NCBI GenBank assembly: GCA_002633005.1
Contig: NMRA01000722.1
Span: forward strand, 117,165-181,164
Direction of reading: 5' to 3'
From: Phoronis australis
Taxonomy: Eukaryota; Animalia; Phoronida
DNA: 64,000 bases
Below, in pieces: positions 22,365 through 25,300 of this stretch. The notes under the pieces are model-generated. The model searched no databases and had not been told where the DNA came from. It worked only from the letters and a program-made list of their open reading frames with translations. Both the position numbers and the translations under genes were made by a program. Each line of letters opens with the position of its first letter. Positions within the stretch are counted from its first letter, which is position 1.

Positions 22365-25300
22365 CTGAAATGGAAGCAGACAGAGTAAGGATAGGGTAGG
22401 AGCAATATTAGGACCACTAAAGACGACACAATAATACAAATAAAGAAGAAATTTATTAATATTTAACTTATGCCAAAAACTGTCTTCGGTTATGAAATGG
22501 AGCTTTAATATTGCTCACAAATCATCACTTTTTAATATTGTTCACAAATCAATATTATTTAATATTGCTCACAAATCAATATTATTGATTGCTTTTCCAA
22601 AAACATTATGGAGCTACTACATATGAATCTAAGAACATTATGGAACTACTATATATGAAGGCAATTACTTGGAAAATACTATGTATGACACAAATCACTT
22701 GGTAACTACTACGAAAAACGGAACTGTTTGGGAACTACTACGTATGAAAGCAACTGTTTGGCAACCACTGCGTATCAAAGCAATCGTTTGGTAACTACTA
22801 CTACGTAAGCAATCATTCGCTTAGAATTAGATCAAAACCACAGGTTGCTTCCAAGTTGCTTCATGCAAATCTGGGCTGCATTCCAAAAAGGAAGTTCCTT
22901 GTGAGGAAAGCGAGATAATACCATCCTTGTGAGGAAAGCGAGATAATGCCATGCAAGCGAAACACGTGATTACACTAGGTTTCTTGAATTATTCTAAGCA
23001 TACTAGTTGACATGGAAAGCAGCGACAGTAACATTCTTACCGGCTACTGCCTATAGATGGAGTGACAGTAACATTCTTACCGGTCACTGCCTATTGATGG
23101 AAAGCAGTAACAGTAACATTCTTACCGGCCACTTCCTATTGATGGAAAAGCAAGCGACTTGAGATTTTTTTCGTCAGCCAACGAGAGACAGTTCTTCACC
23201 GTTTTCTCAAGAAGCTGCTGGGCATTGCTAGTAGTCCAATTGGGCCCATTACAATGGATAACAAACTTAGCGTGAAAGTTATGGCCAGGACAGATGGCAG
23301 CTAAGGAGAGAAAGGCATTCCGTAAGGTACAAGCAGTCTACAGTAAATATTTAGGTCAGGCGGAGGTCATGATTTTGTAGATGTGTACAACAGAACTGCA
23401 CAGGAACAAATGATGCATTTTGTCAGGCATCACAAACTAAAATGTATCCGGCCACTTACGGCACTTAGCGACAAAGACTGGTGTAGAAGTCAAACACGTG
23501 GCTTTTTATCTGAGGCCTAACACATGACTGGTTCTTCTTAGATATTTATTACCCACAGAAGGCCTTATTTTGATATATAATTTAGCAGTGACATGTGACC
23601 AGTAAGCTTCTTTCTGTTAATCACATCACACTTACAAGAGTCCTTAAATAGCCAGCTAAAACACATTTTGGAACTGTTCACATGAATAACAACAAAACAA
23701 CTGGCAGTTTTACCAGTATGTGAATGTGCCATAGATGACCTTTTTGTTTTAAAATTCCCTTTTTCTTTGTGTATTATGTGATGTTGTGGACTTTTGACCA
23801 AAAAATAAAATATTGACTTGACTTTTGTAGCAATGGTGTCTCAAGAGACTGTATATAAAAATAGTATCAGTTTGAAATGGCAGTTGGACAGATTCATTGA
23901 TTTTTTATTGAATTTTTAAAGGTCCCAGCATTTATGGGGCCAACTATGACCAAACTGATATAATAAGCAAACATGTTCTTTCATTCATACAACATTTGCC
24001 AGTCCAATAAACTCTGTTCCTGACAATTCAAGTACCATCTACAGGGTATCTCAAAATATGACCAAAAACATAAATTTGAATACCAGATAATGGGTTCACT
24101 GGAACAAATGGTGTGTTTTTTGAATTCCATGAACCACAAAATTTGCTTTCCAATAGATGTCATGGTAAGTGCCACAACTGACTCTAACTGCAGAGAAACA
24201 ATGAATGGATATTCTCCATCTGACTCTCTCATAATCTTCACATGCTCCACGGCACAACTACTGTATCCTATGCTCAAATTGAATACAATTTCGATTGCAG
24301 AAAATCTAGATTAGTTTATTTAATTGTTCTCCATCTTGGCACATCAGCGTTGATGGAAAATCCTCAATATTTGTGCTGGAACTTCCCAATTGGTTGTGCT
24401 TGATGCCACAATGCGAAAAATTTCATTTTCTGCAACAACAGTCAACTGTGACACTAATTTCTACTCCTGGCAAAGCAAAGTTTGAAGTTCCTGGAATACG
24501 AAAAACACCATTAGTTCCCAATAAAATCATATCCTAGTAGTCATAATTTTGAACACCCTATATATCATAGCCAACACCTTAGTTTGCAACACATCTCGGT
24601 TCATTCCCCAATAACACAGTTCAGTCGCATAGTAGCACTCACTTCCCAACGCTCAATGCAGGAACAGCGATGGATTTGAGATGTTTTTCATCAGCCAGGG
24701 CCAAGGAGTTTTTGACAGCCTTTTCAAGAAGTTGTTGGGCATTAGGGCTGCCCCACGAAGGACTATTCACGTGAATGACAAATTTGGCAAAAAAGTTATG
24801 GCCTGGACATATTGCAGCTGAAAAAAGAAGATGGATGGATATTAAAGTCATTCAGAATATCTTTGTTGTAACACAAAACATGCCGACCGCACGTTGTCCA
24901 CTCTAACGAACAAGCCAACTAAATTTCTAAAAGTGTCCATTTAATGAACCTGATCTAAACACCACTTCTTGTTCATGTCTCAACACCCTCAGCTGAATGC
25001 GAAAAGTGTAATGACGAACAAAAGAGAGTGGTTATTTACAATCTTTGAGTAAACCATTTTAAACTGTCTGTTATGACTATTAACCTATTCACTGACTACT
25101 CTCTTATCTTATGCCAAACCTACTCACTGACTACTCTCTTATGACTAACCCATTCACTGACTACTCTCTTATGCCTAACCCATTCACTGACTACTCTCTT
25201 ATGACTAACCCATTCACTGACTACTCTCTTATGCCTAACCCATTCACTGACTACTCTCTTATGCCTAACCCATTCACTGACTACTCTCTTATGCCTAACC

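Follow-up and report, generated by a model that had tools for sequence, protein, structure and literature searches.

A tandem pair of alternative macrodomain exons in the macroH2A gene of Phoronis australis and other invertebrates, with a predicted role in ADP-ribose binding

The macroH2A gene of the phoronid Phoronis australis contains two neighboring, homologous versions of one macrodomain exon, and we confirm that these exons, 7a and 7b, are a real, expressed, and old pair. Either 7a alone or 7b alone gives a macroH2A of 378 residues, and we hold with moderate confidence that exchanging the two tunes ADP-ribose binding rather than switching it off. It is a new macroH2A splice pair, located at another exon and in other animals than the one known, with a predicted function.

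The gene lies on the minus strand of the window, by which we mean the whole 64,000-nt stretch of contig NMRA01000722.1 that was analyzed. All macroH2A features fall in one 378-residue frame of eight exons that comprises an H2A fold, a basic linker, and a C-terminal macrodomain. Exon 1 (33669..33840), identified from its ATG, its GT donor, a tblastn match, and the joined frame, supplies the start codon and part of the H2A fold. The fold continues in exon 2 (32552..32658) and ends in exon 3 (31730..31978), which also carries the basic linker, and exon 4 (29075..29164) joins the end of the linker to the start of the macrodomain; these three have AG/GT sites and an open frame. Exon 5 (27920..28010) encodes the GDI and GGEV motifs. 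Exons 1 to 5 are defined from DNA alone, and the joints of exon 6 (26863..26952), which is constitutive and lies upstream of the pair, rest on the loose ends of RNA reads, whose consensus at both acceptors equals the 3′ end of this exon. Exon 7a (24643..24817) is of the type that we call A, with an HVNSP motif and a split Asn codon at its end, and was identified from RNA joints and the exon tree. It is separated by an intron of 1342 nt (23301..24642; RNA depth table and splice-site scan) from exon 7b (23126..23300), of B type, with HCNGP and a terminal split Arg codon, which rests on RNA joints and loose ends. The joints of both exons land at position 22364, the first base of exon 8, whose coding part remains open to the stop codon (22202..22364). 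The top structure matches of the exon peptides are to macroH2A1, and the protein is 70–72% identical to two macroH2A isoforms of Lingula, its closest relatives among the proteins compared.

In vertebrates, exon 5 is the one subject to alternative splicing. The first-pass annotation had described it as single and 1.1-like, and both points stand: tblastn gives one match for it in the window at E values up to 10, and PDB alignments fit the macroH2A1.1 chains and not those of 1.2. The exon of the vertebrate switch, with its GDI/ADI and GGEVG motifs, is thus not the duplicated one, and the pair is found two exons downstream.

Exons 7a and 7b are each 175 nt long, enter in phase 1 and leave in phase 2, and have pyrimidine-rich AG acceptors and the donors GTGAGT and GTAAGA, respectively. 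These lengths, intact sites, and phases were re-computed in agreement with the first-pass annotation, as was its count of 41 shared residues in 59, about half of them with different codons. The two exons agree at 40 of 57 whole codons (41/59 with the split codons included), and 22 of the 40 shared residues use different codons. In DNA, 114 of 175 bases are identical (65%), with a dN of 0.23 and a dS that is not estimable (saturated under NG86, no value from LWL85 or YN00). The likeness stops at the exon edges, and the flanking introns match over no more than 10–11 nt. Exactly one exon is usable, as had been proposed, since inclusion of both leads to a stop at codon 332, six codons past the join and 153 nt before the last junction, and omission of both to a stop at codon 288, which falls in the last exon. 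An assembly artifact is ruled out by the 65% DNA identity, the dissimilar flanks, and reads that fit one place only, and a dead copy by the open frame, junction reads, and orthologues; the earlier view of an old pair under purifying selection is upheld. The exons are homologous neighbors, are bridged by reads, and shift the frame when joined, the properties by which Hatje et al. (2017) recognize mutually exclusive exons.

RNA reads aligned to positions 22050–25050 came from three raw-read runs of one study (about 18–19% of each, tissue not stated), with joints listed from three reads per run upward; a fourth run, of contigs (X4), gave no alignment to this region. Joints between 7b and exon 8 number 18, 7, and 11 reads in the three runs (36 in total) and those between 7a and exon 8 number 2, 0, and 5 (7 in total), so that 7a accounts for 7 of 43 downstream joints. 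At the upstream side, loose ends join exon 6 to 7b in 19, 16, and 14 reads (49 in total) and to 7a in 5 reads of X3, the other runs being below the three-read threshold or without such reads. In all three runs 7b is the major form and 7a the minor one. Each exon is bridged over the other, the 7 reads of 7a–8 skipping 7b and the 49 of 6–7b skipping 7a. At the threshold of three reads per run, no 7a–7b joint is listed in the three runs, and neither is a 6–8 joint or any loose end at the exon 8 acceptor. The four junctions that the first-pass annotation had named for checking (6–7a, 7a–8, 6–7b, and 7b–8) are all present and 7a–7b is unlisted; the outcome that it held would refute the pair, an exon with no spliced reads, is not what we find, as 7a has 7 reads downstream and 5 upstream. 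Low RNA coverage, with a mean depth of up to about 5 per bin, is also seen on the intron between 7a and 7b, and none on that between 7b and 8. The former intron contains three AATAAA/ATTAAA motifs, at 24324, 23909, and 23550, and translation of a transcript retaining it would terminate one codon past 7a.

The pair is not confined to the phoronid. We searched with 7a, 7b, and a scorpion macrodomain, added cluster look-ups, and compared 228 full-length proteins. Among these, isoform pairs that differ only in exon 7 occur in 14 named species, from Pecten, Argopecten, Mizuhopecten, Ostrea, Mya, Haliotis (three species), Gigantopelta, Biomphalaria, Liolophura, Lingula, Lineus, and Tubulanus. Their members are 98–100% identical over the 110 residues upstream of exon 7 and share at least 43 of 45 residues downstream. 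RefSeq lists both isoforms in molluscs, Lingula, and nemerteans as automatic 'core histone macro-H2A.1-like' X1 and X2 entries, without functional comment and with labels that are inconsistent between species. Both exons are joined in one gene model, A first, in Tegillarca, Paralvinella, Saccostrea (isoform X3), Magallana, and B. pfeifferi (P0001, P0002, P0012, P0160, and P0281). The same order is seen in a model from the centipede Strigamia, whose first copy is complete and ends in Gly-Asn and whose second is partial and ends in Gly-Arg. Nine metagenome loci were found and seven examined, L008 and L009 (32% matches) being left out. Three of them, L001, L002, and L004, contain both exons, A then B, of 175 nt each, with exon ends AA/GT in A and CG/GT in B and A–B introns of 66, 283, and 256 nt, respectively; L001 is not independent of the Paralvinella model P0002, which has identical peptides. 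L003 stops just past A, L005 begins just ahead of B, and L006 and L007 are of the vertebrate type with a single copy. A precedes B in all four genomic loci (the window, L001, L002, and L004). The pair did not turn up in the clusters examined from insects, spiders, scorpions, ticks, sea cucumbers, crinoids, and corals, which argues weakly for its absence there. The proposal that the phoronid lineage independently evolved the switch is not supported, as four or more lophotrochozoan phyla have the pair in common. For several species the A form was recovered more often than the B form.

Two other observations come from these searches. In the coral Porites lutea, X2 and X1 (P0309 and P0312) differ by one residue at the exon 7–8 junction, within this same loop, as would result from a shifted acceptor. 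In spider and tick macroH2A (P0187–P0189, P0191, P0199, P0217, P0218, and P0236), both GGEVG and SIGSG are changed, which suggests a loss of ADP-ribose binding in these proteins.

We propose that one exon would be chosen through competition between ordinary U2 splice sites, backed by nonsense-mediated decay; the second part is suggested because double inclusion creates a stop 141–153 nt before the last junction in all four loci. No U12 sites were found at 7a or 7b, judging by their donors and the absence of a U12 branch motif. Steric exclusion, for which the branch point should lie less than 50 nt from the upstream donor, was not found at the P. australis locus, where the intron is 1342 nt long and a branch-point-like motif lies 59 nt from the 7b acceptor; it may act in L001, with its 66-nt intron (L001:1573–1638). 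In a comparison of four to five loci for intron elements of the Dscam docking-site/selector kind, from species too distant for a firm negative, shared intronic 7–9-mers did not exceed those in shuffled sequences. The window contains 82 inverted pairs, counted without a control. A 45-bp repeat at 23012–23148 duplicates the 3′ end of exon 7b together with the donor and places donor-like sites 45 and 85 nt downstream, the use of which would give an immediate stop; no such joint is listed in the RNA runs. A minisatellite with a 28-bp unit extends from the donor of exon 5 (27384–27939) and supplies 18 donor-like GTAAG[TA] copies in 600 nt, relative to a window background of about 0.5, and read-through at this site would meet a stop within 11 codons.

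To describe how the two types differ, we compared 15 A/B pairs, in which six columns separate A from B; the types were labeled by eye, so that the column counts are partly circular, and gene position gives an independent label for four loci and five gene models only. The column after His is Val in 15/15 A exons and Cys in 13/15 B exons, the column two further on is Ser in 12/15 A and Gly in 14/15 B, and a further column is Ala in 14/15 A and Thr in 11/15 B. In a fourth column Cys is absent from A and present in 13/15 B, and in the column before Pro the same is true of Phe (12/15 B). The last residue of the exon, which corresponds to R315 of the 369-residue vertebrate proteins, is Asn in 12, Thr in 2, and Ser in 1 of the A exons, and Arg in 15/15 B and 0/15 A. 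This residue, and not the ALSVG loop of P. australis 7a, is the best-kept difference between the types. The first-pass annotation had placed the differences at the end of the exon and had seen the switch in the ALSVG loop. The contrast of ALSVG with SIGSG is real, but the conserved differences span all six columns, and the Ala, Leu, and Val of the 7a loop are unique to P. australis among the A exons compared (1/15). The loop Gly is replaced by Ser in 7/15 A exons and kept in 8/15, SIGSG is whole in the scallop and oyster A exons, and the pattern P-S-x-[GS]-S-G is kept in 14/15. Together with the last residue, the loop reads SIGSGR in 7b and ALSVGN in 7a, and both isoforms contain the Asp of GDI, Gly224 of GGEVG, and the VL[FY]D motif, all as read from sequence only. 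The likeness of the 7a loop to other macrodomains that had been pointed out is borne out by its resemblance to the PAISTG of proteins named O-acetyl-ADP-ribose deacetylase among the matches.

The loop encoded by exon 7 binds the diphosphate and the distal ribose of ADP-ribose. With the A isoform of Lingula as a stand-in for the P. australis isoforms, the AlphaFold model shows exon 7 as three strands, one helix, and the loop that follows, with a pLDDT below 50 at the loop end (residues 326–328). The model superposes on macroH2A1.1 structures, including the ADP-ribose complexes 3IIF and 3IID, with an RMSD of 1.0–1.6 Å (1.3–1.6 Å for the ADP-ribose complexes). The earlier placement of the pair in a different exon from the vertebrate switch is supported by the 1.1 and 1.2 chains in the PDB, which differ at the exon 5 region and are identical across that of exon 7. 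As had also been proposed, the exon encodes a loop, preceding the helix, at the opposite side of the pocket. One report explains the lack of binding in macroH2A2 by changes in the loop that binds the distal phosphate (PMC8232725).

The A exons resemble the macrodomain of Capsaspora owczarzaki (7NY6 and 7NY7), which has the same fold and shares with them HV-x-SP and SIGSG-N: 7NY6 reads HVHSP and SIGSG-N, and the human and rat proteins read HCNSP and SIGSG-R. Unlike the A exons, it has the B-like Thr and Phe, and a Gln replaces the Glu of GGEVG. By eye, Capsaspora is A-like at three of the six diagnostic columns, B-like at two, and neither at one, and the vertebrates are B-like at five. We know of no exon pair in Capsaspora macroH2A. 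According to PMC12551714, the affinity of macroH2A1.1 fell during evolution. Our literature search found no paper on R315. The Asn/Arg site is reportedly (Guberovic et al. 2021) among the residues behind the drop in affinity from Capsaspora to vertebrates.

Taken with these comparisons, 7a is predicted to form a more ancestral, tighter-binding pocket and 7b a vertebrate-like, weaker one, in which case the proportion of the two isoforms would govern how firmly ADP-ribosylated PARP1 is captured by chromatin. Tuning appears likelier than loss because both copies keep the length and most loop residues, and 7a is unlikely to be an 'off' form because it has the Capsaspora-type residue at the R315-equivalent site. 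The caution in the first-pass annotation, that binding by 7a may be changed and not lost, fits these data better than a 7a that is 'off'. The pocket of 7a is not the full ancestral one, because both isoforms share the vertebrate-type Glu of GGEVG, where Capsaspora has Gln, and the extra loop changes of P. australis 7a could weaken binding. The thin support for 7a, with 7 + 5 reads from one study and none downstream in X2, also counts against tuning by two isoforms.

It is possible, though rather unlikely, that what the exons change is not the affinity for ADP-ribose but the preferred ligand, the stability of the fold, or a surface for binding partners. All but one of the six diagnostic columns are away from the terminal loop, and their exchanges (Val/Cys, Ser/Gly, Ala/Thr, aliphatic/Cys, and aliphatic/Phe) are spread over a strand, the helix, and the loop after a strand, in an exon that spans three strands and a helix and in which 14/15 A exons keep P-S-x-[GS]-S-G; however, the sharpest column is the Asn/Arg position at the pocket edge, with its clean separation of Arg. 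A vertebrate-like on/off switch, with a 7a that cannot bind ADP-ribose at least in P. australis, is improbable. Although the phoronid loop has A-L-S-V for S-I-G-S, and the loops of the arachnid single forms and the first Strigamia copy are further eroded, the invariant Pro and final Gly are kept, about half of the A exons retain the loop Gly (8/15), those of scallop and oyster have SIGSG whole, and the A-type Asn is also that of Capsaspora, crystallized with ADP-ribose (7NY7). Also improbable is the idea that the two proteins are near-equivalent and the pair mainly regulates dose, with 7a a decoy that sends transcripts to intron retention or decay. The existence of 7a–8 joints, the open frame and conserved residues that A exons maintain across phyla, and the frequent recovery of the A form in several species all speak against a decoy; the RNA coverage of intron 7a–7b and not 7b–8, the minor share of 7a, and Saccostrea isoform X3, a frameshifted 7a+7b model, speak for one.

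Our preferred reading, tuning of the pocket, concerns a pair whose age can be addressed with exon trees, all built on 58 alignment columns and without the partial second copy of Strigamia; the smaller trees also leave out unpaired species and close relatives. In a tree of 74 rows, 26 A and 22 B exons lie on opposite sides of one branch (98/85), which is found in 100% of 200 bootstrap trees, the bootstrap being not fully settled. A tree of 26 rows again separates A from B (96/99). When the terminal residue was removed from a set of 30 rows, a tree constrained to A versus B is as good as the free tree (p-AU 0.485), whereas duplication per phylum (p-AU 1.75e-5) and per species (p-AU 1.7e-4) are rejected; the constrained searches were short, and these p-AU values are rough. 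The simplest reading, we infer, is one duplication, no later than the last common ancestor of molluscs, brachiopods, nemerteans, and annelids. Repeated independent duplications that converged on A-like and B-like sequences are very improbable: the alignment is short, a tree with only the window 7a and 7b as sisters is borderline (p-AU 0.059 with 26 rows and 0.039 with 30), and single-exon lineages such as Saccoglossus, crinoids, and insects are mosaics of A and B features, but the per-phylum and per-species constraints fail, the order is constant in four genomic loci and five lophotrochozoan both-in-one models, and in most comparisons the DNA of an exon is more similar to its own type than to the other, the B–B comparison of L002 and L004 being the exception.

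The 74-row tree places vertebrates, amphioxus, insects, horseshoe crab, and sea spider with B, and corals, echinoderms, Saccoglossus, Priapulus, arachnids, and the first Strigamia copy outside B in unresolved positions. It is doubtful, but conceivable, that the pair predates the protostome–deuterostome split, with lophotrochozoans and the centipede keeping both exons, vertebrates, amphioxus, and insects only the Arg type, and an Asn-side copy persisting in arachnids and some echinoderms. The position of vertebrates, amphioxus, insects, and horseshoe crab inside B (98/85) and the two Strigamia copies in the same order favor so early an origin, and the 58 columns and the mosaic single exons weigh against it. 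If it were true, the 'vertebrate' weakening of the macroH2A pocket would represent one position of an ancient two-way switch that has become fixed.

The invertebrate pair resembles that of vertebrate MACROH2A1 (H2AFY), which produces 1.1 and 1.2, in belonging to the same family and in having tandem macrodomain exons, used one per transcript, in the pocket region (PMC8232725 and PMC12551714). It differs in that the pair is exon 7, whereas the vertebrate pair covers the exon 5 region, and in its lineage. In vertebrate macroH2A1.2, a three-residue insertion and an acidic residue in place of G224 accompany the lack of binding (PMC8232725). In its splicing the pair resembles the frameshift-coupled mutually exclusive exons, homologous, of equal length not divisible by three, and within a folded domain, that make up 60% of human mutually exclusive clusters (Hatje et al. 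2017, PMC5740500). Relative to these, we found no peculiarity in the splice mechanism, and what is new is the gene, the site, and the age. We found no description of an invertebrate macroH2A exon pair in the titles and abstract beginnings searched, and an earlier mention, for example in supplements, is possible. The portions available of PMC12153100, PMC12210499, PMC12551714, PMC8232725, PMC5550673, PMC6189284, PMC5740500, and PMC8714140 do not mention the pair, and the macroH2A alternatively spliced exon is tied to vertebrate evolution in that of PMC12551714. The pair described here is independent of the vertebrate one, forms the opposite side of the same pocket, and persists in several invertebrate phyla. 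It provides natural proteins alike except for one exon, which are suited to testing the role of the Asn/Arg residue in ADP-ribose and PARP1 binding. It also bears on expression studies of mollusc and annelid macroH2A, in which the gene is treated as one product in the available parts of PMC12210499 (without 'isoform' or 'splic'), PMC12153100, and PMC5550673.

Elsewhere in the window, a nearly perfect tandem duplication of 297 bp, with an N where the copies meet (35304–35863, N at 35567), is possibly an assembly artifact. Long stop-free stretches, seemingly exons of neighboring genes, are found at 9167–9679 (+), 42455–43630 (+), 48614–48228 (−), and 2468–768 (−). By eye, we take the first to resemble aldehyde dehydrogenase and the third, presumably, a small GTPase.
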